Below, piece after piece: positions 31,478 through 56,979 of a DNA stretch of 64,000 nucleotides. The notes beneath the pieces were generated by a model. The model did no database searches. It worked only from the letters and a program-made list of their open reading frames with translations, and had not been told where the DNA came from. The DNA is from Candidatus Bathyarchaeota archaeon (GTDB lineage: Archaea > Thermoproteota > Bathyarchaeia > 40CM-2-53-6), in assembly GCA_963835925.1 (NCBI GenBank), contig CAWIHH010000004.1, positions 83,358-147,357 on the forward strand, given 5' to 3'. Every line of letters begins with the position of its first letter. The first letter of the stretch is position 1. A program made the position numbers and the translations under genes.

Positions 31478-31530
31478 TTAGTGTGTGAGCCAGGTGGTGC
31501 GCGTCACACACAAAATTGGAGTTCAAATTA
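31478..31530. repeat. Composite intergenic repeat, copy F
   Basis: tTTAGTGTGTGAgccaGGTGGTGCGCgTCACACACaaaattggaGTTCAAATTa: an 8-bp stem GTGTGTGA/TCACACAC around the GGTGCGC core, plus a TTCAAAT module. Confidence 0.65.
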
Positions 31531-31812
31531 GCGTAAGGATGGTTCAGGCAATGATTGTGGGGATCAAAGTCGAGCAGTAGAATAAACGGATTACACTAAT
31601 GCAACGTGCCGAGGAGAAAAGCAAATTTCTGAGAACTAGGCTACTGAAGATACCTTATGATGCGTTTCGGTATAAGAGGCTGGACTTTAGCCCTTAGAAT
31701 TTGGATACTCCGTCCGTGATTGAGAATAAGCGTGATTCGTCGAAACAATTCTTAGTTTGGGATTTGTACGCGCAACTAGACCCGCAATTCTTACAGGTAG
31801 CAACGTGTCTGG

Positions 31813-31998
31813 TCATGGTGTGATCTTCCTAAATGCGCTGATCGGGAAACCGTCATGCTGTCGGGCATACTTGAGGTAGTCGTCGCAAACCCACCACATA
31901 TTATGAATATTATTCGCGTCTTTATCGCATTTTACGGGTTTACCGTCACGTTCAACGATGACGTCGCATTTACCTGATTCTGGAATTTGAGGCGGCAT
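31813..31998 (-). CDS. Hypothetical small protein
   Basis: 61-aa ORF. Its stop overlaps (ATGA) the start of a further 39-aa Cys-rich ORF at 31697..31816 (own translation MTRHVATCKNCGSSC...). Confidence 0.3.
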   Translation of the reverse strand: MPPQIPESGKCDVIVERDGKPVKCDKDANNIHNMWWVCDDYLKYARQHDGFPISAFRKITP

Positions 31999-32046
31999 AT
32001 CTATGCTAGCGTATGCAGTTCCAGAGAGTGAGCAGGTAGTTCTGTT

Positions 32047-32439
32047 CTATAGTAGTTCTGTCCACTTCTCCGGTTTCTCTATGACCTTGACTTCGCTGGC
32101 CGTTCGCATCATCCTTGACTTTTGAGGTCTTGCCTGATCGATCATGTCCCAAGTCTTGTGAGTCCATTCCGCTAAAGCCTTGCAGTCACGCATCTTGTCT
32201 AAGGCGGCCCAGTCGGGCGCAGCCCACCAATCCTCAGCATCATAATCGCCAAACCCTAGAATCGTAGTGTAGGTGTTAAGATACTTGACCCCAGTTTCCT
32301 TCTCTATTCGAGAAACCAAATGCTTTGCCTCGTCTGAGCCCAACCATTTCACGTACTCTGCAACTTTCCCTGATTTTCCATAATAGCTCCATACCCAAAA
32401 TACCGACATATTTCCCCACGATGTACTTGGTCGAGGCAT
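32047..32439 (-). CDS. Hypothetical Trp-rich protein
   Basis: 130-aa ORF. No family recognised. Confidence 0.4.
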   Translation of the reverse strand: MPRPSTSWGNMSVFWVWSYYGKSGKVAEYVKWLGSDEAKHLVSRIEKETGVKYLNTYTTILGFGDYDAEDWWAAPDWAALDKMRDCKALAEWTHKTWDMIDQARPQKSRMMRTASEVKVIEKPEKWTELL

Positions 32440-32470
32440 ATGACGTAATTAAGCATGTTTTGTAATCAGC

Positions 32471-32528
32471 GTGATTTGAACCGTGATTTAGTGTGTGGGT
32501 ATAGCTGGTGCGCACCAGCCCGCACCAC
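32471..32528. repeat. Composite intergenic repeat, copy B
   Basis: GTGATTTGAACCGTGAtTTAGTGTGTGGGTATAGCTGGTGCGCACCAGCccgcacc. Contains the perfect 16-bp palindrome GCTGGTGCGCACCAGC (32504-32519). Confidence 0.7.
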
Positions 32529-33382
32529 CAAGATTACTTTCTTCACATCAAATGATGTCGTGCTAGTCAAGGTTTCAGCGTTCATTTTAGATGTACTTTG
32601 ATACTAAGCCGAGTATGCCACCAAGGCCGCCTGCGATCAGCCCTATCACAATGAGAACAATAGCCCAAGTGAGGTCGGCAACACATTTAGCGCCATAGAT
32701 AGCAACAAGGCGAGAACGATTTCAATGATCCCCCAAAAAGATCCACCAAAGGCAAAATACAAGCGGGCGAGAAAGATCGGGAAATCTACTTCTATTGTGA
32801 ATCCAGATGAGTGAGTAGCAAGAGGTGCGGACTGCCAGTCACCAAACCGTTTGCCGCGCTCTCTAGGCACCAAACGACAATGAAGCGTTACCTGTATTCG
32901 TAATCTTTCTAGCTATGGCGAGTATAGCACTACTCCTATGTCTGTACACATCAAGCGTAGGTTTGTTTCCCGTGCGATTCCTGAAGGTGAACGTCCCTAC
33001 AGTTCCACTCGACTGCTGAAATCCTATCCTGGTGGAGACACCGGAGACAATTTTGACGCGGCAGTGAGGGACAATGTTTCAATGTGCGAGCAAGGGCGTG
33101 ACACAACAGTAATGTTCAACGGAAAAAAGAAACAATGGGAGCTACGAGAGTGGATTCCGCTCTGAAGCTGGCAAGGGACCAAGAAAGAGGACAGGCTTCT
33201 CCACCTTCCTAACTGCGAGAGTTCCCTTTTTCTCTTTAGGCATAGCTATTCATTCAGTATTCTATATCAAGATTCATTTATTATTTGTGTGTGCGTACCA
33301 GCGTACTGAAAACTCTCGAGCGAGGATTGCGAGCATCTTAACAACGTAGTGATCAAGACCTGAAAGAGAGGAATCTGCATTC

Positions 33383-33916
33383 TCATTTCTCAAACGATTT
33401 GGCTAGGCTGTCTGCGAATGTCTTGAAGATTTTCTCCAGTTCTTCTTTTGCGATCTCCCAGCTCCTCCATCCGTAAAGCACGACATTCAGTATGCCTATG
33501 ATCGGCAGAACTACTACGACAACACCTATGCCCGGGATGATGACGAGAACTGGAGCGATCAGCGCTATTAGAATCAGAAGTGATACTACTTTTCCCATGT
33601 CCACGAGTGAGCTTCTGAGTTCTTCTTTCCTTCTCGCTGCAAGTCGCTTCCTGCGCGCAACCGCGTAACTGGCGAAGGCACCTGTTAGCCCTTGTAAATC
33701 ACCGTAGATTCGCAACTCAATAATCAAGGCGAAGATGAGCGCTGCTACACCAACAAGGATTCCTCCAGCAACGCCAACTCCGGGAAGCACGTAACTCGTA
33801 ACGTACGCTACGGGCATAATCAGGTAGAGTACAAAGATGAGTGCGAGCATCGTAGCCAGGTTTGTCAGGATGCGTGGCAGACGCTCACGTATCTCATCCG
33901 CGAAGGTCTTCGGCAT
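33383..33916 (-). CDS. Multi-TM membrane protein, paralog A
   Basis: N-terminal EIRERLPR motif and the same TM layout as the adjacent gene. Confidence 0.5.
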   Translation of the reverse strand: MPKTFADEIRERLPRILTNLATMLALIFVLYLIMPVAYVTSYVLPGVGVAGGILVGVAALIFALIIELRIYGDLQGLTGAFASYAVARRKRLAARRKEELRSSLVDMGKVVSLLILIALIAPVLVIIPGIGVVVVVLPIIGILNVVLYGWRSWEIAKEELEKIFKTFADSLAKSFEK

Positions 33917-33925
33917 TCAGGATGC

Positions 33926-34489
33926 CTACTTCCCGGACTTCTCAGATTCTTCAACCATTGATGCGATCTTATCGGAGACCTTGTGAACGGATTTAGCTAT
34001 CTCATCGTATAGTAACCGACCTGCATCGTACAGAAAAATAATAACAACCGCTGCTAGGATTAGCGGAATCGCGGCTGCAAACGATGCACCGATTCCAGGT
34101 ATCAGCACAACGAAAGGCGTCAGCAAGTAGAACAGGATCAGTATCACGACAACTGACAAGAAATCGCGAACGACCTTTCGAATCAAGTTCTGCTGATGCT
34201 CTTCCAGCCCCGGAACTGCTGCCGCCAGCATATGCGATCCATGATGCACCATCACAGCAGTATCGCGCAGGACTCGGACGACTAGGATGGCTAGTATCAC
34301 GAGAAAGATCACTGCCACAGCCAGGCCAACGGACAGACCGACAACGGGAACATTCAGATTTATCGCATAAGCAATAGGAAGAACAATGTAAGCCACGAAC
34401 AAGATAACTACAATAGCCACGAAATCTAGAACTAACCGCGGAAGCCTTTCCCTAATCTCGTGTGATAGTGGTTTAACCGTCTCTGTCAC
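33926..34489 (-). CDS. Multi-TM membrane protein, paralog B
   Basis: Shares the N-terminal HEIRERLPR motif and overall topology with 33383..33916. Confidence 0.5.
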   Translation of the reverse strand: MTETVKPLSHEIRERLPRLVLDFVAIVVILFVAYIVLPIAYAINLNVPVVGLSVGLAVAVIFLVILAILVVRVLRDTAVMVHHGSHMLAAAVPGLEEHQQNLIRKVVRDFLSVVVILILFYLLTPFVVLIPGIGASFAAAIPLILAAVVIIFLYDAGRLLYDEIAKSVHKVSDKIASMVEESEKSGK

Positions 34490-34713
34490 AACATCATCCC
34501 CTAAAAATAGCCGTCTTCTTCGCCCTATCGATAGTCGACGGCGACTAATTTACGTTACGTCTTGACATAGCCATTTTCTAACTTTCAACATTGCTTATCG
34601 TGTTTTCTTTTTTACCTGTCTGCTGTTCAATCAAAGGGGTTTTTCTATTGGGCTTGAATTATGGGGTGCCGCCTAGGAGGTAATCAGCGACGTCTGCGAA
34701 GCTTGGAAGAATT

Positions 34714-35946: not shown

Positions 35947-36323
35947 TGGGTCACTTCCTATCGAATTCACTGTGGTTGCGGACACCCGCGAATGCAATAA
36001 TCATGGGTCGTGCGGTCTGTGAATTTCTCGGTGCCAGTTGTCGCGCGATAGATCGGAACCTAGTGCAACTCCCACCTCCCGGCGCCAAGAAACTGGCCGC
36101 GACTTTCATCGGACTTTTTGCCCATCAATGTGAGTATTACTGATGTTCTAGCGGCTATTTCTGCGGCAGTAGGCACCATGCGAGGCTTCTTGTTCACACA
36201 TAATTGCCCGTGACGGGTTCAAAGCGGTCAACGTAGCTTACTGGATTGAACGTAGTCCGTCTGGTTGTCTCCCCCATTTACGACCGCATGCTTCGCAATT
36301 GTAGTAGAGGACTGTAACATAAC

Positions 36324-36506
36324 TCATTCTCCCTTCTTCTCCACTACATTCCATTGATCGTAAGGTTCGTCCTGTAGATAAGTCGGATCGTTCAACGGCT
36401 CTCCGTCGCCACGAGCGACCGCTACTCTGGCTTCTTCAGGCGTGTTAGCTTCAATGTTGACTTGCTGCATGTACCTGCTGTAAACTGTTACAGTGAACTT
36501 CATCAC
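36324..36506 (-). CDS. Hypothetical small acidic protein
   Basis: 60-aa ORF only. Confidence 0.25.
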   Translation of the reverse strand: MMKFTVTVYSRYMQQVNIEANTPEEARVAVARGDGEPLNDPTYLQDEPYDQWNVVEKKGE

Positions 36507-37634: not shown

Positions 37635-38634
37635 TTCTGAGCTTGCTTTAGCTTGACTCTTAATATTAGCCTCTTCCTTTACTCAAGACCTCAACCCCTT
37701 CTCCTTCCTTAATGCGCACACGCCTTACAATCATCGCCTCCATTAGTGGATTCTTTCATCGTCGCTGTGTAGATGCATAATAGGTTGGTTGCGATAGCCC
37801 TGCCAGATGGGTGTTACCGCATGTACCACATGTTAAATCACTTTCGACATCAGAAAACATTAGTCGTGTTCAAACGCAGGCTTCCTAACTTCAAAAGCTC
37901 GCTTCAGGATCTAAATCAGATGGAGTCTCAGCCAGATGAAGAGGCGGAGATCATGATTGATCTGCCTCTTACCCAGTTAGAGGGCGACGGCTAACTTAGG
38001 ACTTTGGTTGACCTGCAATTCGAGCGAGGTTTGTGTCAAGCTGTTGGAAAATTCCAGAGTCTCGTGACGAGTAGTTTAAGGAATAATTGTCCACAAGAGA
38101 GGCAGTACCTGTTGTATGGGGGTCCCATGTGCTTAGGAAGTTCACGTTCAACTTGTTGCGCTAATGGTATTCGCTTCGCAGTCTATGCCAACTTCATGAG
38201 TCGCTTCTCATGACATTTGAGCGATCCGTGGGGCAGCTTCGCAGACGTGAAGACTAACTTACTCGAGATACTTACCAAAGAGCTAGCAAGACGTTCAGGT
38301 GGCCGGGTCTGATTAGCTTGGCTCGAAAAATCCAACTCAGGCCTTAGCACTTCAGTCACCAGCATTAGTGTTCTTCGAGAAAAATCAAAAAGGATGCTCG
38401 ACGCACCGCTCACACAAATATTGATCCTTGCGTCTGAATAGGCTGTAAGACCATGACCCACAACGATCACAGTAACCGTCGACCAACGTCGGAGCCTTCA
38501 ATCTAACAGTAATGTTCCTTTTTTCTCGTGTCGGTCGAAGCAACACCTGGTTTTAGTTGTGAGCTCTCGTTGTTTTCCTTCTCTTTCTTATTCTCGTCTT
38601 CTTCTCCTGTGTTTGAGGCAATTACGTCACGCAC

Positions 38635-38841
38635 CTAGGACTTTGCGATTCTTCTTCGTAGTTCCTTTTTGTTATAGGATTTAGTAGCCCTCGTTCTGTC
38701 CTTTTCTTGCTTTCTTTCCTCTCTCCTCTCTTCCTTTCTGCGGCTGGTCCCTCTCATTCTTCTGACTCTACTCCTCTCCTTTCCTTTCAAAGCCGATCCC
38801 ACATACTGCTGAGAACCTGTTTCGTCAAATCGAGCTCTCAC
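38635..38841 (-). CDS. Possible highly basic K/R/E-rich small protein
   Basis: 68-aa low-complexity ORF lying on the purine-rich strand of a ~300-bp polypyrimidine tract. It may be a compositional artefact. Confidence 0.2.
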   Translation of the reverse strand: MRARFDETGSQQYVGSALKGKERSRVRRMRGTSRRKEERREERKQEKDRTRATKSYNKKELRRRIAKS

Positions 38842-39031
38842 GGAATTGAAGCAGGCGTGCGAATAGAACCTTTCCTGTTTAGTTCAAGAAGTATAAGTGG
38901 TCAGGGGTTCACGCTTTCTCTTTTTTCATCCTCCAAAGCTGTATTCAGATCCAGAGCCCTGGAGCACCTTAAGCATCTCTTGGCTTCAGCTGGGTTCTCG
39001 GCGGCCGCACCACATCTCAGACTAGAATCCC

Positions 39032-40291
39032 ATGGATAAATACGTTCGAAACCAAAATAGTATAGTGAGAAACGAATCTGAGAACAAGATTGTAAACGAC
39101 CTGTATGGTGTAGAGAGAAGACTAGAACTAGTTACCAAGCGGATTGGAGAGTCGCGAGATATCACTGCGCGAAATAAGGAACTCATTTTCAGGTACACCG
39201 ACAATTGTAGTCTGCGGGGCTTGAGCAAGCTTCGAGTCCTATTCTACCTTAACAGGTTCTGGAACATCGCAAGACTCACAGAGAAAGACTTCGATAAGAT
39301 GGATAGGGAAAGAATAGAGGAGCTTGTCAGAAAGATCCAGATGCGAGGATTCAAGCCTCGTACGGTTTCAGACCATCTTACGGCCATCAAAACATTCTGG
39401 AAGTGGCTTGAAGGTATAGAGGATGTCTATCCAGAGAGGGTGAGGTGGATCAAACCGTGGCGCAGCAACAAAACCCGCAAGCTCCCGGAACAACTTCTCA
39501 TGAAGGAGGATGTGGAGAAACTTATCAACGCAGCTGTGAATCCCAGAGACAAAGCGTTGATCAGCGTCCTCTTCGAGAGCGGATGCAGAATCGGCGAAAT
39601 CCTCGGCCTCAAGATAAGGAACATTGAATTCGACAACAACGGCGCCGTGTTAATTGTTAACGGCAAGACAGGACAGCGTCGGGTCAGGCTGATTCATTCG
39701 GTGCCCAGACTCATAGCATGGCTGGAACATCACCCGAAGAATAACGACCCCGACACGTTTCTCTGGGTGTGCATGGGTTCCAGAAACAATTCTGAACGGC
39801 TCGTGCATCAAAGCGTCGCAAGCATGCTCAAGAAGACTACCAAGAGAGCTGGATTAACGAAAGCATGCAACCCGCATATGTTCAGACACTCACGAGCCAC
39901 CTTCCTAGCTAAGCACCTAACCGAAGCGCAAATGAAAGAATACTTCGGCTGGACACAGGCATCCGACATGGCCGCGATCTACGTGCATCTATCTGGAAGA
40001 GACGTTGACAACGCCCTACTGAAACTGGCTGGAAAGAACGTCTCCGAAGCAGAGAAAGAATCCGAAATGGATAGACGAGCAACCACCTGCTCAATCTGCA
40101 AACACGAAAACGCACCCGAGATCCGCCGGTGCTCAAACTGTGGAAGACCATTAGACCTCAAAACCGCTCTAGAAGACGACAAAAGACAACATGAACTCCT
40201 CAACATGCTGACCCCAGAAATATTGGAGGAAATGATTCAGAAACGAGTGCAACAACTATTGACCAGCAAACCCCAACCAAACCCTAGATGA
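39032..40291 (+). mobile_element. Tyrosine recombinase/integrase with C-terminal zinc ribbon
   Basis: Catalytic pattern R (ESGCRIGEI), H-x-x-R (HMFRHSRAT) and Y (AAIYVHLSG), plus CSIC...CSNCG. Homologous to the decayed integrase at 58051..58680. Confidence 0.85.
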
Positions 40292-40432
40292 ACCCACGCC
40301 TCAACAACCGCTCTCCGCCAGTTTTCAAGAATTTATAGTATCAAATCGAAACTAACAATATGAAAGATCCCAAATTCAACTCAATCGAAGAGCTCATGCT
40401 ATACGTGGACGAAGAAGCTCACCGAAGAATCA

Positions 40433-40568: not shown

Positions 40569-42165
40569 CTATCCTTGTTTCACACGACACGTGAGAGTCT
40601 TCGATATCTTGACCTTATCCATCTCCATGCCCTCCCAGATCGAGGTGTAGCCCAAAGCTTCTAGCACCCTGTCCGCTTCCTCCTTCAACTCTGAAGCGTC
40701 CATTATTCGGAGAGCATCGGTAAGCTTCTCGACTCCCGCAAGCTTCTGATCTATCTCGTCGAGCTTCGCTCTCGAGACGAAGAGGTCGCCAACCCTTGCA
40801 TACCCCTCGGGTTTGAAGTCTTGGAGGGCTATCCTGACCGATTCTACTGAAACACTTCTAGCTCTCGCAATCTCGTTTAGGTTTACAACATCTCCACTTA
40901 GGGCGATGCCTTCTCCCTTGAGCATCTCTGCCTGTTCTGTAAGGATTGGAGTTTCCCTCTCCTTCAGATGCTCGATTATCGGCTTCATGGGCACATCCTT
41001 CTTGTAGTATATTACAAGCGCCTTGGTTTTGAGCCTCTCGAGCTTGGAGCATGCTAGGCTCTCATCGGCTGCGATGATCATGTCTACATTCGCGATTGAG
41101 CTCAGTTTGTTTATCTTCCTCTCAAGATACTCAGAGGTCCAGAAGCCAACCACTTCGAGGTAAACTTTCGCACCGTACTTCTCGAAGCTGAAGTCTGGTA
41201 TGAGCACGTGCGTGCCTGCTATAAGTGGCTCAGGCTCCCTCCTCAACACCCATCCAGAGTTGTACGAGAGGAATGATTTGGCAAACCTCTCCTCCACGGT
41301 GCTGTCATACAGTTTAGCTTGGGTTTGTTCTTCGTGACCAGCAACTTCTTTCTCCACATTCGTGATGAGATCCTTCAGTTCCTCGCTATCAGGCTCGAAG
41401 CTGTATACTCTCCCCCTGCTCCTCGCGAGTATCTCTGCCTTGATACTCCATGAGTCTGATGCTATTATCTGAGGGAGGAGTTTCGCGATCGACGTGCCAT
41501 ACCGCTCTGTCATCTTGAAGAGCGAGAGAGGGCCATCGAGAGTGACTCTGTATCCCGCTCCATCATCTTCATCTTTCTCCACGGAGTATATCAAACCTAA
41601 TCTCTTCACTTCTCTGAAGATGTTCTTCCAGTTTCCAGATGCGGAGAACTCGACCCTGAGCGACTTGAAGAGGAGTGTCTGCGTCAAGCAGAGGTTATAG
41701 TACTTGATAAGCAGCTCTGGGTCAAGAGGCTTGAAATCTTTCAGGATCAGCTCATCCTCTAAATCGCTGAAGAGTGTTCTCTCCAGAGCTTCTGGAGAGG
41801 TGCCTAACTGGCTTGAGACTGTTTCAATTACATGATTCCTCTCCGCTAAGCTTGATGCCCTTCCCCTGCTCGCTTCCTCGAAGACAGCTGTTCTAGTCTC
41901 CCTTGGATTCAGCGCGCTTTCAACTTGGAAGGTGCATCTCCTCTCTAGCAGAGTTGACAATCCTCTAACGAGCTTGAAGTCGTAGCCCTCGTTCTCTACC
42001 TCCTTCAACCGTCTCAAGGAGTTCTCCCTTCCTCTTTCCCATTCCATCTCTGAATTCACCCGTGATTCTTTCAGCCAGGGCTCGAGTATCGAGATCAAGG
42101 CTCGCATAGATTGGTCGTATCTTTCCTCTGCTAATCTTCGCTCTGAGAAGATTTGATGGGAGCAT
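40569..42165 (-). pseudogene. bax1: Bax1 (DUF790) nuclease, XPB partner; 1-nt frame break near 42005-42015
   Basis: The canonical N-terminus MLPSNLLRAKISRGKIRPIY... lies in ORF 41965..42165. It continues as EVENEGYDFKLVRGLSTLLERR in the frame of the 1015-aa ORF. C-terminal nuclease motif: VLIPDFSF...VYLEVVGFWTSEYLERKINKL. The break sits at gaaGGaggtag. Confidence 0.8.
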
Positions 42166-43616
42166 CTGCTTACGCTCCTACTGACTCGACGATTTCTCCG
42201 CCGTCGTCGTGAGTGTTTGTCCTCTGCGGATTCATCTTCAACCTTTCCCCCTGTTCTGTTCATTGCTCCTTTCCTCCTTCTCCTGCTTGCTGTCCTCGTC
42301 TCCGAGGTCTCTCTCGATACAAGCTCTATCAGCCTCGCCTGTCCTTTCCCCTCGCTTTTTCTCAGCAGCCTGCCTAAGCGCTGGATGAACTCTCTTGAGC
42401 TCCCCGTCCCACTCACTATAACCCCGATAGAAGCCTCTGGAACATCGATCCCCTCGTCGAGCACCTTCGAGGTTACTATCGCTCTGAACCTTCCCTCCCT
42501 GAAGCCTTTCAGCGCATCATACCTCTCCTCCTTGCTCGTAGTATGGGTTATGAACGGGAGCAGAAACCTTCTCGATATTCTGTATACAAGGTCGTTGTGC
42601 TGTGTGAAGATGAGTATTCTATCATCTGGATTTGAGTGTAATATCTCCTCAAGCCTGTCTATCTTCGCTTCGGAGTTGAATGCAATCCCTATAGCTCTAT
42701 TTCTTGCAAGCAGTGCTTGCCTTGCCTGAGGATCCCTTGAGGTCCTCATTATGAACCGTTGGAAGTCTAATGGTGACTTGAGCCAGATCCTGTTCTCCTC
42801 CAAATAGTTCGTGAACGTCCTGTAATTTCTCTCATACTCCTCCTTCTCCTCTTCTGTCAACTCAACGTTTACGCTCTCAATAGTATAATCGGAGAGGTAC
42901 TTTCCCGCAAGGTCCTCTGGCTTGAGCCTGTACACAACGCCTCCAATCAGCCTCGGAAGTTCGAGGTGGAGCATATCCTCCCTCTCGTAGGTTGCTGTGA
43001 GGCCCATCCTGTATGTGGCGGTGAACATCTCAGCTATCTGTCTGAAACTCTCAGCCGGCAAGTGATGCACTTCATCAAAGATAATGAAGCTGAACCTGTT
43101 GCCGAGTTCTCCAGCCCTTATGAAGGCTGAATCGTATGTGCATACCGTTACCGCCCTGATCGTATTCTCCCCTCCTCCATACACCCCAACTTCAATGCCG
43201 AGCTCCTCCTGCACCCTCCTCTTCCACTGCTCCAGCAGGTCAAGCGTGGGAACGATTACAACTGCAGACTGATTCACGAGCTCCATCGCCTTCATTCCAA
43301 TTACCGTCTTCCCAGCCCCGGTTGGTAGCACGATTACTCCTCGCCTCCCCGCTTTATCCCAAGAATCAAGAGCTCTCTTCTGGTACGCCCTCATGCGTAT
43401 GCCCTTGCATTTGAGTTCTGGACAGGGAGGATGGTCCTCAACGCTGTCCTTGATTGCTGACAGCTCGCTCCGCTTCAAGAACTCGATTATCTCATTATAG
43501 TAAAGACCCTGCGCCCTGAACGCCCTAACTCTATCGTCCCAACTCGAGTAAGGAACCTTCGCCTCGCTTCTTATCAGAATACTTCCCTTATCATAGGACA
43601 GGTAGGTGGGCTTCAC
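42166..43616 (-). CDS. xpb: XPB/Rad25-type SF2 helicase (true 3' end uncertain)
   Basis: N-terminal damage-recognition-like domain (LSYDKGSILI), motif I VLPTGAGKT, motif II FDEVHH, motif VI QRLGRLLR. This frame has no stop before bax1; both other frames stop around 42240-42270. Confidence 0.85.
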
Positions 43617-43910: not shown

Positions 43911-44097
43911 GAGAACCGTCTCTCAAATACTAAATCGGCCGCCGGGCTCCACAGCGTTCTTGTTGCTGGAAGTGGATTCAAAATTCACGGGTTCGAATCT
44001 TGGTGGATTCGAGCTCGCCCGCTATCTTGCCTTTTTCTCATCGCATCACACTTCCACGTGCTCGCTTCGCTCGCATAACAGAGATCTACGTCGTTGC

Positions 44098-44146
44098 GTG
44101 ATTAGGTGGAGTGTGGTGTTGGTTCAGAGGTTAGTGGTGCGCACGC
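44098..44146. repeat. Composite intergenic repeat, degenerate copy E
   Basis: GTGATTaggtggaGTGTGGTGttggttcagaggttaGTGGTGCGCACgcg, just 3' of gene 44182..45702. Confidence 0.4.
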
Positions 44147-44181
44147 GCAAAGAAGTGAGTAGCTTTCGATGTCGACTGTCG

Positions 44182-49207: not shown

Positions 49208-50156
49208 CGTGGATTCTCACCACCACTCCATTCTTGACACTTCTATAGCGCCGCGACCTCAACATGTTTCGCGGCAGAATTGCACTCAACTAAGAAGGCA
49301 GATCTCATCAACAGGAAGCGCTGCTTTTCCTGTTCCCACACAAGTGAATTGTGTCGAGGAGCTTTCACCAGAAGACAGTTTGTCTTAGTTCCAATTGCAC
49401 GAACATGGCGGAAAACAGGCCGTCGCAGATTCTACATGTATTGGCTGAGGTGAGATCTGTTCGGGTAGCCAATACGGAACAGGGCGGATAGTAATATCTG
49501 ATATCAAGAATCAATCAAGCACGGAGAAGCAGGTCGGTAGACGTTCAATCTTAAAGTGGATTGGAGCAGTTACGGCAGCCACAATCGTGGGCGAAGTCGA
49601 AAGCTACGAGGCAAGCCAACCTTTCAGGCCGGTTAGAACGGTAACAGATACCACTTTTATCAAGACAACAACTACTAGCATTTACTCGAGTACACCTAGC
49701 ACGACCCTATCTGGTACTCCAGCTAGGGACCTACGACCCGTGATCAATCAGATCGGCCTGAGGGTTCGCACTCAAACCACGGCGCACCATGCACGGTTCA
49801 CGCGTTAGCCTTTCTACTAGAATACATGTATGCGACCCGCCTTGTCTCCGACCTATCGGAAGAGTACCTGCAATACGTCACCTTTCAAGTCGAGGGACCC
49901 CCGATGAAGGGAGAAGAGAATTTCTGGGCTCTGAATATTGGCTATCAGAAGGGGGGGGTAGTCCCGCAGACCTTTCTCGCCAATCAAAACAAAGTTCCAA
50001 CAAGCATTCAAAATACGATCCTCGAAATGAGAAGGAGCGGAATGCGCTTCAATCCGGTATTCATCAGGAACTGGGATTCAACGACCGGTGCCACTCAGGG
50101 CCAGCTCAAGTAAGCAATCAAATATTTAGATCAGAACATTCCGTACCGGAGACAAA

Positions 50157-51380
50157 GTGAAAGTTGGATCCTTGGAAGTTGAACCGATCCATGTTGACCA
50201 TTCAGTACCAGGCGCTTACGGATTCATAATTCACACAACTGAAGGCGCAGTAATCTACTCCGGAGACTTCCGAATACATGGCACCAAATCTGAAATGACT
50301 CGTGACTTCGTGAAGGCCGCTGCTGAAAACAAACCCATAGCCATGCTTTGTGAAGGCACGAACCTGATCGGAGCTGATTTCTCAACTGAGCACGAGGTCA
50401 ATGAAAAGATAAACAAAGTCGTCGGCACGACACAGAATTTAGTGCTTGCCAGCTTCCGTCATACGGACGTTGATCGCACAAGGACCCTGTTTGAAGTTGC
50501 AAAACGCAACCAACGCAAACTCGCGATTTCTCTCCGACAGGCGTACATGTTGAACAAACTCAAGGCAGACAAGAATCTTGACCTGCCAGCTGTTGACTCG
50601 AAGGATTTTCTGATCTTCAAACGCGAAAAGAAATCGTACTTCAAGTGGGAGAAGGCTATCTTAGATTTCCCAAACGCCGTAGATGCACAGGAAGTGAAAC
50701 GAATGCAGAGCAAAGTCATCCTTGCGACAGGTTTCTCCGACCTCAAGGAATTAGTTGACATGCATCCAATGCAGAGCGACCCGTTTTGGAGGCAGAAGTC
50801 CACAAAATCTGCGAACAGACGAAGAATCCTGACTGCCCTGACTGAAGCTGGTCAGACCTTCGGCGAGTTGGAGAGGAAGGTGGAGTTGTCACGTCCCGTA
50901 CTAAGCATCTACATGAAGGAATTGGAGAAGGCCGGCGAGGTTGCTCGCCAAATCAAAGGTAGACGGATCGAGTACGTTCTTACGGACAAAGGAAAAGGCC
51001 AGGAGAGAATGCGCCGAGAATCAATTGCGAAGGCGTTTCAGGTAGTAGGGCAACTCACACGAAATTACTCTTCGGCGAAGTCTATGCTGGAAATCGCTGA
51101 GTTTGCGAAAGAGTCGCCAGAGTTCTTTGCAGAATTTCTGCAGTGGATGACTGATTATATGACTCTGGTATTGAGCGATGACACTCTGCGATGGCTTAGA
51201 AGACATAGAGATGGAAGCGGGAAATTGCTCCAGGCAGAGGTAATGAAGAAATTGGCGCCATTCATCAAAGAGATACATGCCGATTCAGAAGATGACCCAA
51301 AGAAAGTGATGTCGATCTTTCAAAATCTACTCAATTCAATGAAAGAAGTCATATCGGAAACAGGTGGAACTCGACCATGA
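50157..51380 (+). CDS. Chimeric protein: internal fragment of an RNase J-like MBL/beta-CASP nuclease fused to an ArsR-like wHTH and a helical C-terminal domain
   Basis: Residues 1-~210 match the RNase J region spanning motif 3 (VDHSVPGAYGF), motif 4 (YSGDFRIHG) and beta-CASP motif A (LCEGTNL). The HxHxDH motif and the C-terminal MBL half are absent. The wHTH reads RRILTALTEAGQTFGELERKVELSRPVLSIYMKELEKAGEV. GTG start; an in-frame stop lies 30 nt upstream. Confidence 0.55.
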   Translation: MKVGSLEVEPIHVDHSVPGAYGFIIHTTEGAVIYSGDFRIHGTKSEMTRDFVKAAAENKPIAMLCEGTNLIGADFSTEHEVNEKINKVVGTTQNLVLASFRHTDVDRTRTLFEVAKRNQRKLAISLRQAYMLNKLKADKNLDLPAVDSKDFLIFKREKKSYFKWEKAILDFPNAVDAQEVKRMQSKVILATGFSDLKELVDMHPMQSDPFWRQKSTKSANRRRILTALTEAGQTFGELERKVELSRPVLSIYMKELEKAGEVARQIKGRRIEYVLTDKGKGQERMRRESIAKAFQVVGQLTRNYSSAKSMLEIAEFAKESPEFFAEFLQWMTDYMTLVLSDDTLRWLRRHRDGSGKLLQAEVMKKLAPFIKEIHADSEDDPKKVMSIFQNLLNSMKEVISETGGTRP

Positions 51381-52621
51381 ATCCTCTTCATCTTTCAGGT
51401 TGGGGTGTGAAAATCCGCGCCAACAATCTCAAGTCAAGATCTGAGCTTGAAGTCATAAATGGACGAGAAGATGGTAGAGCTGAATCATCGAATGGTTTTC
51501 GTCCTCGACGTTTCCCCTACAGCAGCATAATTATTGATGGACACAGCGGATACATTTCATTGCAGGCGTTTCACTGGCTGTCGAAGCATAAAGTTCCTGT
51601 TTTTGTAATTGGCTTCGACGGCACCATCATCTCTAGTATTCTTCCTCCGATTCCTGTGAAGGCTGATGTTAGGGCTGCGCAGTTCCAAGCTGCTAGTGAT
51701 CCGAAGAAGAGGTTCAAGATTGCTAGAGCGCTTGTTCAGGCGAAGATTGCTAGGAGCTTGCAGGTTTTGGATTGGTTGGGTGAACGTTATGATATTCATA
51801 GAGAGATTTGGGTAACGAAGCTTGAGGCATCAAAACTCAGAACAGCAAACACTGTTCCTGACTTGCGAGTGGTGGAAGGACGTGTGGCTAGGCGCTACTG
51901 GGAAGCATTCGGTAAGGTGATGCCTGAACATCTCGACTTTCAGGGTCGTATGACTTCGAGTCATCAGAATAATGCGTCTGATCCGGTGAACTTGGCGTTG
52001 AATTACGCTTACGGAGTTCTTGAAGGGGAATGCAGGCGAGCAATCAACGCAGTGGGGTTAGAGCCGTCGGTGGGGTTCTTACATGATTTCAGTGATTATC
52101 AAACGAAGCAGTCGTTGGTTTATGATTTGCAGGAGCCGTTCAGATGGCTTTCCGACATGTCCGTTATCGGGGCGTTTGAGTCGGAGGCTTTGAAGCTTTC
52201 AGATTTCTACTTCACGGGGGATGATTACAGGTATCGCTTTCAGCCTGAGGCGAGGCAGCGATTCATCGACATTGTTCGTGAACGATTCAATTCAGGTGCA
52301 AGCTACAGGGGGCGGGTTCTGAAGTGGGATACGGTCATTGAACAGAAGACAACCGAACTCGGACGGATGCTGGTAAATAGAACACGTACAATTGATTTTT
52401 CTGATCCTGAAATCAAGCTGCTAAGGCATGACGATCGCGAGCTGAGAGCAAGAATCCTCTCTCTTAGCCAGTCTGAAGCAAGAAAGCGTGGCATTGGGAA
52501 AAGCACACTCCACTACTTGAGAAAGAATGTCTCGCGTGGCGGCTCTTTCAGGGTTCATGAGCAAATTCGACAGAAAATCGTGGTCTGTAATTCAAGTTCA
52601 TCAGGGCTACAACAGGAGTGA
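51377..52621 (+). CDS. cas1: Stand-alone Cas1-family integrase with C-terminal HTH (casposase-like architecture)
   Basis: N-terminal beta domain (YISLQAFHWLSKHKVPVFVIGFDGTII). Catalytic core with E (VVEGRVARRYWEAF), H (DPVNLALNYAYGVLEGE...GLEPSVGFLHD) and D/E (SLVYDLQEPFRWLSD). C-terminal HTH (LSQSEARKRGIGKSTLHYLRKN). ATGA overlap with the upstream gene. Confidence 0.85.
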   Translation: MNPLHLSGWGVKIRANNLKSRSELEVINGREDGRAESSNGFRPRRFPYSSIIIDGHSGYISLQAFHWLSKHKVPVFVIGFDGTIISSILPPIPVKADVRAAQFQAASDPKKRFKIARALVQAKIARSLQVLDWLGERYDIHREIWVTKLEASKLRTANTVPDLRVVEGRVARRYWEAFGKVMPEHLDFQGRMTSSHQNNASDPVNLALNYAYGVLEGECRRAINAVGLEPSVGFLHDFSDYQTKQSLVYDLQEPFRWLSDMSVIGAFESEALKLSDFYFTGDDYRYRFQPEARQRFIDIVRERFNSGASYRGRVLKWDTVIEQKTTELGRMLVNRTRTIDFSDPEIKLLRHDDRELRARILSLSQSEARKRGIGKSTLHYLRKNVSRGGSFRVHEQIRQKIVVCNSSSSGLQQE

Positions 52622-53291
52622 AGATTCATTCTTGAAGATCCCAAACGCTGGGAATATTGACGCAGCCAAGAAAATACGCGCGGAACTGACATGGATCTAC
52701 GTGGACGAAGTCCTCTACAGAGAATTCGAGCGATTGAAGGAAAACATAAACTCACGTGATGTGGCGTACAAGGTTGTCATGGTGGACAGTTTGCACAACT
52801 GCAGACTAGCGATGGATCCGTGGGAAGTTGCGGGCTTGATAATCGGTGCCAAGGTGGATGAAAAATTCGATCGCGTTGAGCCAGCGACCTTGGTTGGAGA
52901 GATTGCCAACATGGAAATCAAGAAAGTTGGCAAAAGAAGAAGATTGAATCTGGGTCCAGTCTTCTCTAGCAAGTTTTGCCACTTTCATCGCCCTAAGCGA
53001 TTCGCCATCTACGACAAGTTCGCCGACAAAGCTCTAGGAGACCTGCTGGAGCGCCAAGGGAAATTCAGTTATGCAGAATTCCAGTTGTCACTTGACAAGT
53101 TGATTCGGGAAGCTAATCCGCCTCCAAATTACAAGGAAATTGACGTTTACCTCTGGCTCTACGGGCAATGGCTGGACTATAATGGCGGCAACCGAGTGTC
53201 GAGTGAAATCAAGGAAGCCATTTCGAGACAGCGCGAACTTTTCTCACAGCTCTACCCGACCCACGCTGATAACAAGAATTGTGGCCCTTAG
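52527..53291 (+). CDS. Hypothetical protein (start uncertain; may begin after the cas1 stop, e.g. TTG near 52633)
   Basis: 254-aa ORF. The first 31 codons overlap cas1 in another frame. Contains an SSKFCHFHRPKRFAIYDKFA segment. No family recognised. Confidence 0.5.
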   Translation: MSRVAALSGFMSKFDRKSWSVIQVHQGYNRSEDSFLKIPNAGNIDAAKKIRAELTWIYVDEVLYREFERLKENINSRDVAYKVVMVDSLHNCRLAMDPWEVAGLIIGAKVDEKFDRVEPATLVGEIANMEIKKVGKRRRLNLGPVFSSKFCHFHRPKRFAIYDKFADKALGDLLERQGKFSYAEFQLSLDKLIREANPPPNYKEIDVYLWLYGQWLDYNGGNRVSSEIKEAISRQRELFSQLYPTHADNKNCGP

Positions 53292-53418
53292 TCAGTCGGA
53301 GGCAGAACAGCTTGGTATTGGGAGGAGTACTCTCCATTACTTGCGCCGCGATGCAGAGAATGCCCTGTCGCTCAGAGTGCCCTCAAGAATTCGAGATAAG
53401 ATTGGAAGAGTAAGCTAG
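53266..53418 (+). pseudogene. Remnant of a second Cas1-type C-terminal HTH tail
   Basis: Own translation LITRIVALSQSEAEQLGIGRSTLHYLRRDAENALSLRVPSRIRDKIGRVS* aligns with the Cas1 tail LRARILSLSQSEARKRGIGKSTLHYLRKNVSRGGSFRVHEQIRQKIVV (about half identical). No upstream Cas1 body in this frame. Confidence 0.55.
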
Positions 53419-54903
53419 TTGGAAATGGATTTCCGAATTCAGTTCCTAGACATAGACCAAAGCACTTTGAAATCAGTACCTGACTTGCTTTATCCAGTAA
53501 TCTGGGAGCAAGTCAACAGTTTCAAGAAACGATGCTTGGGAGCAGAGCCAGAACGGACAGGTAAAGCGCTCCCTCTAGTACTAGCTATCAGGAATCCTAG
53601 TGTCCAGTCAGCTAGTGGAGTACTGAAGATTCAGCTAATTATCCCTGGATGGGAGAATGAGAAAGGATCAACTCTTTCGATGGATGCAGATTGTCCTTTT
53701 CAGGAAGTCAACGCAGGTGAAACCAAAGAGATTGTGCTCATGGAGGTGTCGAATATTCCTCTACTCAGAATGTACCTTAGGACTGCTGAATTCTACAAGT
53801 CCGGCAAACGCGTAGAGGCAAAGATGACAGGTCATCGTAGTTTCGTTTTCAAGACCACAGGTGATTTCTTAATCTCTTCGGCGTCAAGCAAGATTGAGGA
53901 TAAAGAAGATGAGCGCAACATTGAACGCATAGAACATGAAATCGGTTTCGAGAATTATTTCCTCCTCAAGACCTACTTGGATTTGCCAGTCTATGAAAGA
54001 GGCATCATTCTCAGAGTCTTATTCGACCGCATGGAGGACATACTGAAAGGCCGCGTACTTGCAGATTCGACTCCTGACAGAAAGGCGGCCATACAACACC
54101 TGTTGCAAATTGAAATAATCTCAAAGATTTGCATGATGATCGAGGACCTAGGACTCTTCTCTGTATCAATGCGAACAGGAATCAAGGAGCTGTGTAACAT
54201 ATTCCTTGATGAAGGTAGCAGCAATAAGGTCGGCCAATTCTACAGGGACCTCGATGAATTAAACGGTGAAGATTTTCTTAGAGTTCTATCCTTTCCGACC
54301 GCAGACTCGCTTCGTCTGTCCGCATCGGACTATGAAGTAGTGAACAAAGTGCTTCAGAGCGTACAACAGGAAGCTAGACGAGTATACCACGAAATAGCAA
54401 AATTCAGAAAACAGCACTGGACCTTGTACAATAAGTACAAACATGGATTCGCAATCATCCCGTACGTGCAAAAAACTGCGGGAAACATAGATTTCTTGGC
54501 CGATGTGGAGTCTGCAGTCTTCGTCCTACATGACAAAAGATCACCTTTGAAGGAAGTCATAACTGTTCCTTACAGTGCGAGAATCCTAGAAGCGTATAGG
54601 ATTCTGATCGTTGGGATTCAAGCCCTTCTGAAGAACGTCCTTGAGAACCAGCTTAATCTTCTGGAGAATCCGAATTTGATCAATCTGCCGATGCCCAGTG
54701 AGAGTCTGACGGCAGATGAACGTTCACGATATGCAGCAGTAACGAAGAGATTCCAACCAGCAAAGGAAACAAATCGAGATCATCGAATACACGTCAGAGC
54801 TTTTGCAAAGAAAGATGACCTGAAATGGTATGCGGACTTGCCAAAGTTCTTGGAAGAAAGTGCAGAAAGGGGTAAGCGCGAACAGTCGAGCAGATCAGAT
54901 TAG
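53419..54903 (+). CDS. Hypothetical 494-aa protein (beta-rich N-terminal domain, helical C-terminal domain)
   Basis: Long intact ORF immediately after the HTH remnant. Likely ATG at 53425. No family recognised. Confidence 0.5.
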   Translation: MEMDFRIQFLDIDQSTLKSVPDLLYPVIWEQVNSFKKRCLGAEPERTGKALPLVLAIRNPSVQSASGVLKIQLIIPGWENEKGSTLSMDADCPFQEVNAGETKEIVLMEVSNIPLLRMYLRTAEFYKSGKRVEAKMTGHRSFVFKTTGDFLISSASSKIEDKEDERNIERIEHEIGFENYFLLKTYLDLPVYERGIILRVLFDRMEDILKGRVLADSTPDRKAAIQHLLQIEIISKICMMIEDLGLFSVSMRTGIKELCNIFLDEGSSNKVGQFYRDLDELNGEDFLRVLSFPTADSLRLSASDYEVVNKVLQSVQQEARRVYHEIAKFRKQHWTLYNKYKHGFAIIPYVQKTAGNIDFLADVESAVFVLHDKRSPLKEVITVPYSARILEAYRILIVGIQALLKNVLENQLNLLENPNLINLPMPSESLTADERSRYAAVTKRFQPAKETNRDHRIHVRAFAKKDDLKWYADLPKFLEESAERGKREQSSRSD

Positions 54904-54960
54904 TGATTTTCTCCTTAGCGCGGGGCTCTTGGTGCTGGCGTCGTTGTTCGTCGTTAGGAA

Positions 54961-55027
54961 AGTGTGTGTGGGTCTACTGGTGCGGCCGATTGAATTTGAA
55001 CCGGCCTTGTTTTCATGTGTGTGTTTT
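54961..55027. repeat. Composite intergenic repeat, copy D
   Basis: aGTGTGTGTGGGTCTACTGGTGCGGccgattGAATTTGAACCGGccttgttttcatGTGTGTGTt, lying between convergent genes 53419..54903 and 55034..56656. Confidence 0.65.
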
Positions 55028-55033
55028 CAGCGT

Positions 55034-56656
55034 TTAGGTTTTTGTTGGGTGTTTGCGGCGTAACAAGTACACACCAACAGCCACGACAGCTACCGCGACG
55101 ACCGCCGCAACTATCAAAGTATTGCTGGGCGCGCCCGTTACGATGGGTTTAGTCGTAGTCTCGCTGGAAGTCATCGCCTTTGCCGTAGTGAGACGAGTAA
55201 TGCCCTGCGACGGCAATGTGATTACGAAGTTCTGTTGCCTCGTGTAGGTGCTGTTCGACAACTGCTGGACGTGAATGCTGAGGTTACTTCGCTGGCCACT
55301 CGAGGCCGTAACGGTCACCGTGTAGTAACCAGCAAACCCACGAAAACCAATCTGACCCTTATCATCAGTCAACGCGCTGCCCTTCGTCCTGAACATTTGC
55401 ATCAACCCCAGAAAGACGGAATATGATTGTCTCAGATCGCCGCCCTGTGTGAAAAGACCCATTTCATCAAATTCACCCGCCTTTCCCTGCGTTTGAATGT
55501 CAACCATAGTTAGGAGATGATCACCTAAGGTGTTGTCCATTCCGAACGGAAGCGTAGCCATGTACTTCACCCAGTCCGCTTGCATGGTTTCATCATAGGT
55601 CGTCCCCCACGCCGTCCAATGGCAACTTTGACAGTCGTATGCCGGGTAGCCTCCTTCCTGAATGAAGACTCCCTTGCCGAGGCTTTGCAGTTGCTGAATC
55701 TTTGCTTTATAGAATGAAGGTGTGTGATTCTCATTCTCGTTGGGCGGACCACCCGGATAGGCTTCGACAGAGAACCCGTCCACTCGAAGACCGCTGACGA
55801 GAGCCATGTGAGCAAAATCATAGGGCGAAAAATGTCCACGTGAAGCAACATAGCGCCCCGCATAGGAACTCCCGCTCAAGTCAAAACCAACCATCAAGAG
55901 AACCTTCGCATCCTGCTGTGCATCTCTAATTGCTTGAACCTCAACCCGGTCGACATCGATAGAGTTCTGCATATTTCCCATCAGAACTGTCCAAGATGGG
56001 TCTAGGTCAGGTTCCGTCTCCGTAATCCAATAGTCCACCATGTTTCCATAACGCTTCACGTTCTGGTAGACGTAATCATACAAATCCTTCTTGAACTGGT
56101 CGAAGACAGCGGGATTTGACAATTGTTGCATGTTAGCCCAGGCTGGATAGCTCGGATACGGATCATAGGGATCCGCCTCGGCGAGAGTGCGAAAGACTAT
56201 GATGAAACGCGCCGTGGGGCAGAGGCTGCGTTCTTGTTTGAAAGGGTTGTCATACGCATCCCAACGGTAGACGCCTCTTTGAGGCTCGACTTGGGGCCAT
56301 TGGTTCCAGATCAACTTTATCGTGGCGTTCATGAATGTACACAAATCGCTGTAGGTTTTTTGGGCCTGAGGATTATTCTCGGCTGCTCTGGCAAATCCCT
56401 CAAAACCGAACTTGAAATCGTGGCTGGTCTGTTGGTAGGAGACATTCAGATTCTTGACCGGATGGCCCGACGAGTCCAGAACGGTAATGGTAACACCATT
56501 CTTGCGATGCTGCTCAATATACTGCAACGCCTGCTGATACGCAGCCTCCTCTTGAGTCAGGTCAGGAGGTTGCCCCCAAACTCGAAACGGAATCACACCC
56601 ACCAGAACCAGTGTTATCAGACAAATCGCGAGAACGAGCTTCCAGTGAAAGGACAA
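55034..56656 (-). CDS. Secreted TIM-barrel glycoside-hydrolase-like protein (GH10/GH5-like) with beta-sandwich domain, S/T stalk and C-terminal TM anchor
   Basis: Signal peptide; FKFGFEG...WNQWPQVEPQRGVYRWD motif; carboxypeptidase-regulatory-like segment (GFAGYYTVTVTASSG); TM helix plus RRKHPTKT tail. Confidence 0.5.
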   Translation of the reverse strand: MSFHWKLVLAICLITLVLVGVIPFRVWGQPPDLTQEEAAYQQALQYIEQHRKNGVTITVLDSSGHPVKNLNVSYQQTSHDFKFGFEGFARAAENNPQAQKTYSDLCTFMNATIKLIWNQWPQVEPQRGVYRWDAYDNPFKQERSLCPTARFIIVFRTLAEADPYDPYPSYPAWANMQQLSNPAVFDQFKKDLYDYVYQNVKRYGNMVDYWITETEPDLDPSWTVLMGNMQNSIDVDRVEVQAIRDAQQDAKVLLMVGFDLSGSSYAGRYVASRGHFSPYDFAHMALVSGLRVDGFSVEAYPGGPPNENENHTPSFYKAKIQQLQSLGKGVFIQEGGYPAYDCQSCHWTAWGTTYDETMQADWVKYMATLPFGMDNTLGDHLLTMVDIQTQGKAGEFDEMGLFTQGGDLRQSYSVFLGLMQMFRTKGSALTDDKGQIGFRGFAGYYTVTVTASSGQRSNLSIHVQQLSNSTYTRQQNFVITLPSQGITRLTTAKAMTSSETTTKPIVTGAPSNTLIVAAVVAVAVVAVGVYLLRRKHPTKT

Positions 56657-56879
56657 ATGAAACCCGTAAATTGGACTCTAGGCTTGGCTTAAATAATTTA
56701 CCTGAATGGGCAAACACGCAGTAACCGTTAGTACGATAACTACTTTTTTCAAAACAGACCATGCGGCCCTGAACCGAGGTAATGATGCTTCGGATTACGT
56801 TCCGCTTCTTCTTGAACTCATCTTCTGCCCTTGCGTGTTTGCAGGCGTTTTCAATCGGGGGCGTTGTCGCTGGTGCAGA

Positions 56880-56979
56880 CGTGATTTGAACCGTTAGGTT
56901 GGTAGTTTTCTGTGTGTGTGTGCGCACCAGCTATACCACACACAGAGAAAAATTCCTGAACGACGACGGTTCAAATTCA
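56880..56979. repeat. Composite intergenic repeat, copy C (complete palindromic form, MITE-like)
   Basis: Outer inverted repeat TGATTTGAACCGT (56881-93) / ACGGTTCAAATTCA (56965-78). Inner 10-bp perfect stem TCTGTGTGTG / CACACACAGA around TGTGCGCACCAGCTATAC. The core is the reverse complement of copy B. Confidence 0.7.

Follow-up and report, generated by a model that had tools for sequence, protein, structure and literature searches.

Dispersed repeats with the layout of a tRNA 3' end as probable recombination sites of a casposon-derived mobile system in a Bathyarchaeia genome

The question raised by this locus is what a short composite repeat, (GT)n-GGTGCGCACC-ATTTGAACC, stands for that occurs in four strong copies (A to D) within a 64,000-nucleotide stretch of Bathyarchaeia DNA. 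This stretch, here called the window, corresponds to C4:83358-147357 of a 2.35-Mb, six-contig genome with a GC content of 49%. A first-pass annotation of the window had described the four copies, palindromes in two of them, an excess of the 9-mer ATTTGAACC and several weaker copies, and had offered three explanations: a miniature inverted-repeat transposable element (MITE)-like element, a structured small RNA family, or a shared operator or terminator. The answer developed below is that the repeats are probably the recombination sites and element ends of a casposon-derived mobile system, at which a Cas1-like casposase would insert mobile gene cassettes into the chromosome. The points missed in the first-pass annotation are that the repeat has the layout of a tRNA 3' end, that it follows the grammar of casposase target sites, and that a casposase gene is present in the same window.

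The repeat family is present as described and extends well beyond the window. A fuzzy search of the genome with the core of copy C yielded 45 related sites. When 30 of these genome-wide copies were used to make an nhmmer profile, the genome gave 97 units at E<0.01 and, at the looser cut-off of E<1, 146. In the window, this profile recovered the same four copies at 31477-31519(-), 32486-32527(-), 54959-55007(-) and 56905-56946(+), with E-values from 1e-9 to 0.01 and no further match below E=8. The claimed over-representation of ATTTGAACC is confirmed with third-order Markov expectations, both in the window (5 observed, 0.9 expected) and in the genome (65 observed, 33 expected). Two further words behave likewise in the genome, with 100 occurrences of GTGTGTGTG against 9 expected and 11 of GGTGCGCACC against 1.1 expected. 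A generic repeat finder reported only fragments of the family (D19 and I11), because the copies share short conserved boxes with variable bases in between and no long alignable stretches. The palindromes are real as well. Copy B contains the 16-bp palindrome GCTGGTGCGCACCAGC at 32504-32519 and an extra GCCCGCACCA at 32518-32527, while copy C consists of nested inverted arms, with an outer inverted repeat ATTTGAACCGT/ACGGTTCAAAT (11/11, 71 nt apart) and inner arms of 20 nt with 85% complementarity around a centre of 14-16 nt. The weaker copies stood up in part: the sites at 33286-33309, 44059-44148 and 15009-15017 resemble degenerate pieces by eye and look like decayed fragments, none being significant alone, whereas those at 7766-7776 and 4073-4079 are unsupported.

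All parts of a complete unit follow one order: a GGTTCAAWTT motif (T-box), 8 bp, a 14-mer starting with CGCACCA, and CACACAC. The consensus reads GGTTCAAaTT-N5-TGCy/CGCACCA-N7/CACACACAcaaa, where the slashes mark the edges of the 14-mer; the information content is highest at the T-box and at TGCyCGCACCA, and the N5 and N7 segments are variable. Of 58 cases, 54 have a spacing of 9 nt from TCAAWT to CGCACCA. The start of CACAC is exactly 14 nt past the C of CGCA in 51 of 84, and GTGTG abuts CGCA with zero gap in 17 of 45, with a reversed control pattern giving 0 matches. Next to the CACACAC terminus there is usually a short A/T run, followed by GAACGACGACG and a new GGTTCAAAT, and the terminal inverted arms take the form CACACAC...GAACGACGACGGTTCAAATT. 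An alternative sub-terminal module, GCTCGCTTCGCTCGC, follows CACACAC in at least eight units. Mirror-image junctions carry the reverse complement of the arm on the opposite side of the 14-mer. The catalogued junctions fall into five classes: T-box, 14-mer and CACACAC (n=34); T-box and 14-mer only (n=39, including three real tRNA ends); 14-mer and CACACAC (n=23); GTGTGTG and 14-mer (n=18); and GTGTGTG, 14-mer and CACACAC (n=16). Inverted arms around single 14-mers are found in copy C, at 16 other junctions in the genome and at a 2.8-kb Cas1-containing segment in a related genome (G014). Tandem units occur with a period of ~58 bp and in at most three copies.

Read on the other strand, the ATTTGAACC module together with GGTGCG(CACC) gives the 3' end of a tRNA with an encoded CCA, namely T-loop, 5 nt, 7 nt, A and CCA. 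The tRNA genes of this genome encode CCA and have the same layout, as exemplified by tRNA-Gln, which ends in ...GGTTCAAATCCCGGCGAC/CGCACCA. The unit is shown in its layout to mimic a CCA-encoding tRNA gene at its 3' end. That the boxes are conserved while the spacers vary in more than 100 copies furthermore indicates selection on a putative bipartite binding site. Concerning the tRNA complement itself, ARAGORN predicts five tRNA genes without introns in the genome (C1, C3, C4 and C5) and 21 when introns are allowed, most of the 21 encoding a 3' CCA; some of these introns would be longer than 1 kb and are likely to be artefactual.

The same layout is known from the targets of casposases. The casposase of Aciduliprofundum boonei needs the motif TCAAATC 9-15 bp upstream of the insertion site as well as the first two bases of the target-site duplication (PMC6614799). 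The Methanosarcina mazei casposase makes a 14-bp target-site duplication starting with a conserved CGCA, which represents the last four bases of tRNA-Leu (PMC6977970). At the level of motifs and distances, the unit (TCAAWTT, 8 bp and CGCA, a 14-bp segment and an element terminus) is shown to match this published grammar of family-2 casposase targets. An enzyme of this kind is encoded in the window as a stand-alone Cas1 whose C-terminus bears a helix-turn-helix (HTH) domain (Table 1). It aligns with the M. mazei casposase (6OPM) over its full length (residues 6-401, HTH region included) and scores 178 bits with PF01867, whereas Cas1 proteins of CRISPR (clustered regularly interspaced short palindromic repeats) systems match it with E-values of 1e-25 or worse. 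By homology, the Cas1 of the window is a casposase. An exact-protein look-up gave no record for it.

Units and casposase genes are found together more often than expected. The genome holds 11 casposase genes or fragments (Cas1 matches), and eight of these loci are at most 6 kb from a unit, compared to 1.9 expected (P ~4e-4). The casposase gene of the window, which is one of the eight, is intact, as are paralogs at C1:329395-330615 and C5:276347-277573. A common layout consists of the casposase gene, one to four co-directional genes and then an array of units and cassettes. Across 41 related genomes, the unit count correlates with the number of casposase matches (Spearman 0.59, P=5e-5), and 12 of 24 casposase loci from other Bathyarchaeia metagenome-assembled genomes (MAGs) have a strict site within 10 kb. 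The 24 retrieved casposase relatives all derive from peat and soil MAGs of Bathyarchaeia or Bathyarchaeota, one of them labelled Nitrososphaerales. Some casposase genes lie within segments with recognisable borders. In C1, three copies of the core C[G/A]CAC(AC)CAGCATACC delimit two segments of 16-17 kb with one casposase gene each, which are candidate tandem elements, and inward-facing arms border the 2.8-kb segment of G014, which contains a casposase gene as well as a 148-aa gene.

The copies in the window can be understood as parts of such segments. We read copy D as a junction of leader, 14-mer and terminus, at which the casposase gene array (50157-54903) ends; its CACACAC side faces this array, whose last stop codon is at 54903. 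Copy C is read as two facing termini around one 14-mer, and such an arrangement would account for its nested palindrome. Copies A and B would represent the two ends of a ~1-kb cassette, both decayed and facing inward. This cassette is a mosaic, with a paralog of 32005-32512 at C4:647 kb and a paralog of 31801-32006 at C3:147 kb.

The boundaries of segments that occur more than once bear on how such cassettes are exchanged. Positions 32005-32512 of the window, containing a 130-aa gene and copy B, are 92% identical to C4:647333-647834, with the homology starting exactly at CGCACCA. Upstream of this boundary, the C4:647 kb locus has a T-box leader that is absent from copy B. A segment of 1071 bp is present twice at 98.6% identity (C4:641000-642070 and C4:66025-64960), and both of its boundaries coincide with the border between 14-mer and CACACAC; the left 14-mer and its leader are locus-specific, while the right 14-mer is shared. 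It is the single recent duplicate found, and its behaviour is that of a 'cassette plus one 14-mer' swapped at a constant position. The sites at C3:69487 and C4:882.8 kb share the leader side and the position of the 14-mer and diverge exactly after it, with CACACAC following at one site only, and so represent a paralogous occupied and empty state. Boundaries involving one 14-mer agree with the observation that excision of the M. mazei casposon in vivo leaves a single target copy, the authors' hypothesis being a circular intermediate (PMC10359463). Sequence identity at the boundaries extends over 7-11 bp, which is short for recombination, as the same authors cite ~800 bp of similarity as a requirement (PMC10359463). 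In-register paralogous high-scoring segment pairs of at least 120 bp number about 10, which is too few for a breakpoint histogram.

Homology with another relative, G011, breaks ~9 nt before copy A. The region compared is rearranged, with pieces at C4:1.16 Mb and at 38.4 kb of the window, and no clean empty site was obtained from it. In G011 a thermosome gene follows the 225-aa ACT-domain gene; here the thermosome gene is located at C4:1.16 Mb beside a partial copy of the 3' end of the ACT-domain gene. The pieces involved are 31300-31418 of the window, matching C4:1165090-1165208, and 38382-38910 of the window, matching G011.

In the genome, 70 of the 97 units fall in the 20% of sequence outside a crude set of open reading frames (ORFs), often 50-300 bp from gene ends and with some excess in convergent gaps. 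The units are clustered, occupying 30 of 120 bins of 20 kb, and these clusters are short-gene islands where almost all intergenic gaps hold a unit. The orientation of the units is unbiased with respect to gene starts and ends (22-24 each way), and they are enriched where gene orientation switches, with 33 T-box units in divergent or convergent contexts versus 13 in tandem contexts. Enrichment at orientation switches fits boundaries of segments, not promoters or terminators. The family is patchy and restricted in its taxonomic range. Among 201 sampled genomes of the class, the strict pattern is found only in this genus, its sister genus and two genera of a neighbouring family of the same order, plus a single match in a third family, with 0 matches in ~190 other genomes. 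Within one genus, the copy number ranges from 0 to 55.

These features can be combined into a possible mechanism in which CACACAC, or its mirror GTGTGTG, would be the terminus of an inserted segment abutting the 14-mer. The sub-terminal arm, usually GAACGACGACGGTTCAAATT, would bring in a new T-box and thereby a fresh docking site with each inserted segment, which would explain both the tandem units ~58 bp apart and the arrays of short cassettes in mixed orientation. The casposases of the same islands, including the one encoded in the window, would cut both edges of the 14-mer, with predicted strand-transfer points 14 bp apart (GGTTCAAATTACGTTGCT/CGCACCAGCTATAC/) and a donor end of ...TTTTCTGTGTGTGTG-3'. 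Segments would move as 'cassette plus one 14-mer', probably via a circular intermediate as hypothesised for M. mazei. Recombination between copies would then shuffle and erode the arrays, adding inversions and solo ends. Both the catalysis by the casposase and the circular intermediate are steps that we infer from sequence patterns.

Several findings weigh against a casposase acting on these sites. Neighbouring 14-mers are no closer to each other than random pairs (4.34 versus 4.35 mean mismatches in the variable 7 nt, P=0.5), exact 14-mer matches are present in only 3 of 47 properly oriented end pairs, with only the C1 triple matching, and convergent end pairs show no excess of identical 14-mers. 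The classical signature, identical 14-bp target-site duplications, is thus absent, although such duplications are not expected if circles with one 14-mer re-enter at non-identical 14-mers. Left-type junctions (~74) outnumber right-type junctions (~36), and simple insertion does not explain the head-to-head palindromic forms and the inverted 14-mers at some segments. The three real tRNA 3' ends among the catalogued junctions share the grammar, yet are unoccupied. Four genomes of the same genus contain 9-21 units and no casposase match, and in other species there are several full-length casposase loci that lack a unit within 9 kb. Many junctions, and the segment in G014, have clear inverted arms (CACACAC, linker, GGTTCAAAT); the casposase array of the window shows one end only, a search for its second end having detected none. 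Finally, PolB was not found near most casposase genes and not at all in the window; PF00136 matches are limited to C4:425 kb and C5:302 kb, both distant from any Cas1. Since PolB is absent at nearly all loci, these are not canonical self-synthesising casposons. A protein-primed PolB-like ORF (PF03175, E=2e-14) is located at C4:956660-957331 (-), ~11 kb from the Cas1 fragment at C4:968 kb and near two units, and may be a remnant of a canonical PolB-bearing casposon.

Part of this list would suit a selfish repeat derived from a tRNA 3' end, similar to a repetitive extragenic palindrome (REP) or MITE, which is moved by another transposase or by homologous recombination and is near casposases only because both share variable islands. 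In its favour are the units in the four genomes with no casposase match and the lack of identical target-site duplications; the head-to-head palindromic doublets resemble MITEs and bacterial interspersed mosaic elements (BIMEs), and boundaries inside conserved boxes are also expected from repeat recombination. However, no Y1 transposase of the REP-associated (RAYT) type is present in the genome, and the 8-bp/14-bp geometry with its CGCA start matches casposase biochemistry and no insertion sequence family. Identity over 7-11 bp at the boundaries is short for recombination given the ~800 bp cited above, and the association with casposases is significant, while that with tyrosine integrases is not. 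On balance, we regard a repeat of this kind as an unlikely explanation. The geometry of a tRNA 3' end would also fit leftover att sites, that is, duplicated tRNA 3' halves left by elements with a tyrosine recombinase, and the genome encodes nine tyrosine integrases (PF00589), several of which are beside real tRNA genes. Of the nine, only one has a unit within 6 kb, close to the chance level, and the T-stem position is taken up by 5 nt that are hypervariable and unpaired with the upstream bases, so that the units are not copies of one tRNA. As the copy number and the constancy of the boxes point to selection on a binding site, an origin from att sites appears quite improbable.

The reading of the units as DNA-level sites, and not as RNA genes or regulatory motifs, is also consistent with the fate of the three explanations proposed initially. 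The MITE-like element came nearest to the truth in so far as the copies are end pieces or junctions of mobile or recombining segments; the other two found no support. A regulatory element shared by the island genes, either promoter, operator or terminator, would be in keeping with the intergenic position of most units close to gene ends and with the convergent-gap excess. It is at odds with the equal orientation toward gene starts and ends, with the enrichment at orientation switches, and with the absence of the repeat from most of the class and its variable copy number within a genus, which together make it very improbable. Structured small RNAs or tRNA-like RNAs are suggested by the palindromes of copies B and C, the T-loop-like box and the CCA-like end, but for 21 units RNAalifold gives neither a consensus pair nor a covarying one, and the palindromes are explained as two facing element ends. 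Neither Rfam nor ARAGORN gives a hit at any unit, and the only Rfam match in the window at the gathering threshold is the tRNA-Arg at 15114-15188. With 5 nt on either side of TTCAAAT unpaired, a real tRNA or T-arm was rejected, and we give RNA genes almost no credence.

If the repeats are indeed sites of a casposon-derived system, the closest known relatives are the family-2 casposons, such as AciBoo-C1 of A. boonei at tRNA-Pro and MetMaz of M. mazei at tRNA-Leu. These share the casposase with C-terminal HTH (6OPM, E=7e-74), the TCAAAT T-loop motif ~8 bp upstream of a 14-bp CGCA site, inverted arms, here clear at many junctions, and the tandem reuse of the same kind of site, and one target copy seems to travel with the element. 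In contrast to family-2 casposons, the units described here are without PolB at most loci, over 100 dispersed mimics stand in for real tRNA genes as sites, each arm brings a new site, and the cargo usually consists of one or a few unrelated small genes. Identical 14-bp duplications are missing, and the termini are CACACAC/GTGTGTG. To our knowledge, casposons reported to date occur in small numbers per genome, encode PolB and reside at one or two tRNA or ef-2 sites. Full-text literature searches returned no description of dispersed casposase-target mimics, of PolB-less casposase cassette arrays or of casposons in Bathyarchaeia.

The arrays also resemble integrons (IntI, attI and attC), in which an integrase is found beside short, unrelated cassettes bounded by recombination sites and the cassette appears to move with one site. 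Here, the enzyme belongs to the Cas1 family instead of the tyrosine recombinases, the sites lack the attC fold and the GTTRRRY core, the cassettes have mixed orientation and units are also found far from integrase genes. A true integron was rejected because of the distribution of PF00589 matches given above, the lack of a conserved fold and the mixed gene orientation. As in REP/BIME families with RAYT and in archaeal MITEs, the units are short, intergenic, high in copy number, lineage-restricted and arranged singly, in tandem or head-to-head. However, PF01797 has 0 matches in the genome, whereas control genomes give hits, the basic unit is not a hairpin, palindromes being present only where two units or arms face each other, and the boxes match a casposase target. 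A plain MITE was dismissed as well, since the arms are common to the copies but the interiors are mostly unrelated, and no target-site duplications were found. The CRISPR leader-repeat junction, lastly, is similar in that a leader motif upstream directs an enzyme of the Cas1 family to cut a segment of fixed length at its two edges, and an array builds up as this is repeated. It differs in that the fixed segment here is 14 bp and the 'spacers' are gene-sized cassettes or 44-bp arm stubs, and no regular array was detected, with no search made for Cas2 or effector genes. Regular repeats of 25-50 bp with spacers of similar length are lacking, and a periodic 14-mer scan of the genome found no CRISPR-like array, its only periodic signal being four copies with a 45-bp period at C5:137462-137598.

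The remaining genes of the window are of mixed character. Directly after the right arm of copy C is a 70-aa ORF (MPLGKYEIYKDHAGKFRWRLRASNGEEIASGQGY..., 57044-57256 (-)), which may encode a YegP/DUF1508-type small protein; the stretch of ~240 nt is kept at 72-84% in many genomes of the genus, and copies are present at C4:558.6 kb, C1:190.9 kb and C3:68 kb. Upstream of the casposase gene, a 407-aa ORF (50157-51380 (+)) has a central winged-HTH domain of the HxlR/ArsR type, and its first ~200 codons are conserved in many genomes of the genus (70-92% nucleotide identity) independently of Cas1. This ORF may be 5'-truncated or frameshifted, with ORF fragments at 49789-50160. A full-length tyrosine recombinase (39032-40291 (+), PF00589, 83 bits) and an integrase fragment (58051-58338 (-)) indicate other integrated elements in the window, which are unrelated to the repeats by position. 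The 1015-aa ORF at 40569-43616 (-) has N-terminal helicase-type motifs and a long C-terminal extension and resembles by eye an XPB-type helicase in fusion with a Bax1-like nuclease. Between 44000 and 50000, the GC content is ~54% compared to ~48% around it, and three large, secreted Ser/Thr-rich proteins with C-terminal membrane anchors are encoded, one with a weak Glyco_hydro_42 hit; this stretch is possibly a separate acquisition.

Table 1. Copies of the repeat and associated features in the window
Feature	Coordinates	Strand	Description
Weak T-box	15009-15017	-	GGTTCAAAT with degenerate acceptor-like part; ~95 nt downstream of tRNA-Arg 15111-15188 (-), same orientation
Copy A, degenerate	31477-31529	-	AATTTGAACTCCAATTTTGTGTGTGACG, 14-mer CGCACCACCTGGCT (31501-31488), then CACACAC
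Mosaic cassette, ~1 kb	31530-32470	-	Between inward-facing arms of A and B; carries 130-aa ORF 32047-32439
Copy B	32471-32529	-	14-mer CGCACCAGCTATAC (32512-32499), then CCACACAC-TAAATCAC-GGTTCAAATCACG
Weak copy	33286-33309	+	GTGTGTG abuts CGTACCAGCGTACT; right-end junction with one mismatch in CGCACCA core
Weak composite	44059-44148	+	GCTCGCTTCGCTCGC module and reverse-complement 14-mer-like GGTTAGTGGTGCG
Casposase gene	51377-52621	+	Stand-alone Cas1, C-terminal HTH; 6OPM match, E=7e-74; contexts of catalytic E, H and D/E motifs conserved
Copy D, complete unit	54959-55007	-	T-box GGTTCAAATT (55001-54993), CAATCGGC, 14-mer CGCACCAGTAGACC (54984-54971), then CACACACAC (54970 leftwards)
Second arm adjoining D	55002-55023	-	CACACACATGAAAACAAGGCC runs into T-box of D; CACACAC-linker-T-box arm common at unit junctions
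Cassette gene between D and C	55034-56656	-	540-aa secreted protein, C-terminal membrane anchor, no Pfam match
Degenerate T-box site	56860-56895	-	GGTTCAAATCACGTCTGCACCAGCG; acceptor-like part shortened, no CACACAC after it; read by eye
Copy C, left arm	56884-56922	+	ATTTGAACCGT...GGTAGTTTTCTGTGTGTGTGTG; inverted T-box, then (GT)n terminus abutting 14-mer
Copy C, central 14-mer	56923-56936	+	CGCACCAGCTATAC; putative casposase recombination/target core, inverted arms on both sides
Copy C, right arm	56937-56977	+	CACACACAGAGAAAAATTCCTGAACGACGACGGTTCAAATT; terminus, GAACGACGACG box, T-box

The adaptation machinery of CRISPR systems is proposed to descend from casposons. This Bathyarchaeia genus from peat and soil has up to ~100 dispersed sites with casposase grammar bracketing single-gene cassettes, and many casposase genes without PolB. 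We read the island architecture of these uncultured genomes as largely explained by the shuffling of such cassettes. If the casposase acts on these sites, integrases of the Cas1 family would be able to run an integron-like cassette system, a target site could be carried and multiplied by the element itself, and the arrays would offer a natural test bed for the evolution of leader-guided, fixed-length integration into repeat arrays. It is conceivable, although we put it forward with considerable doubt, that PolB-less casposases and self-propagating sites mimicking tRNA ends form an integron-like platform for the capture and shuffling of gene cassettes. Each cassette would then bring a leader-like motif and a 14-bp core, with arrays growing beside casposase genes, and the system would be a living analogue of a proposed step between casposons and CRISPR leader-repeat arrays.

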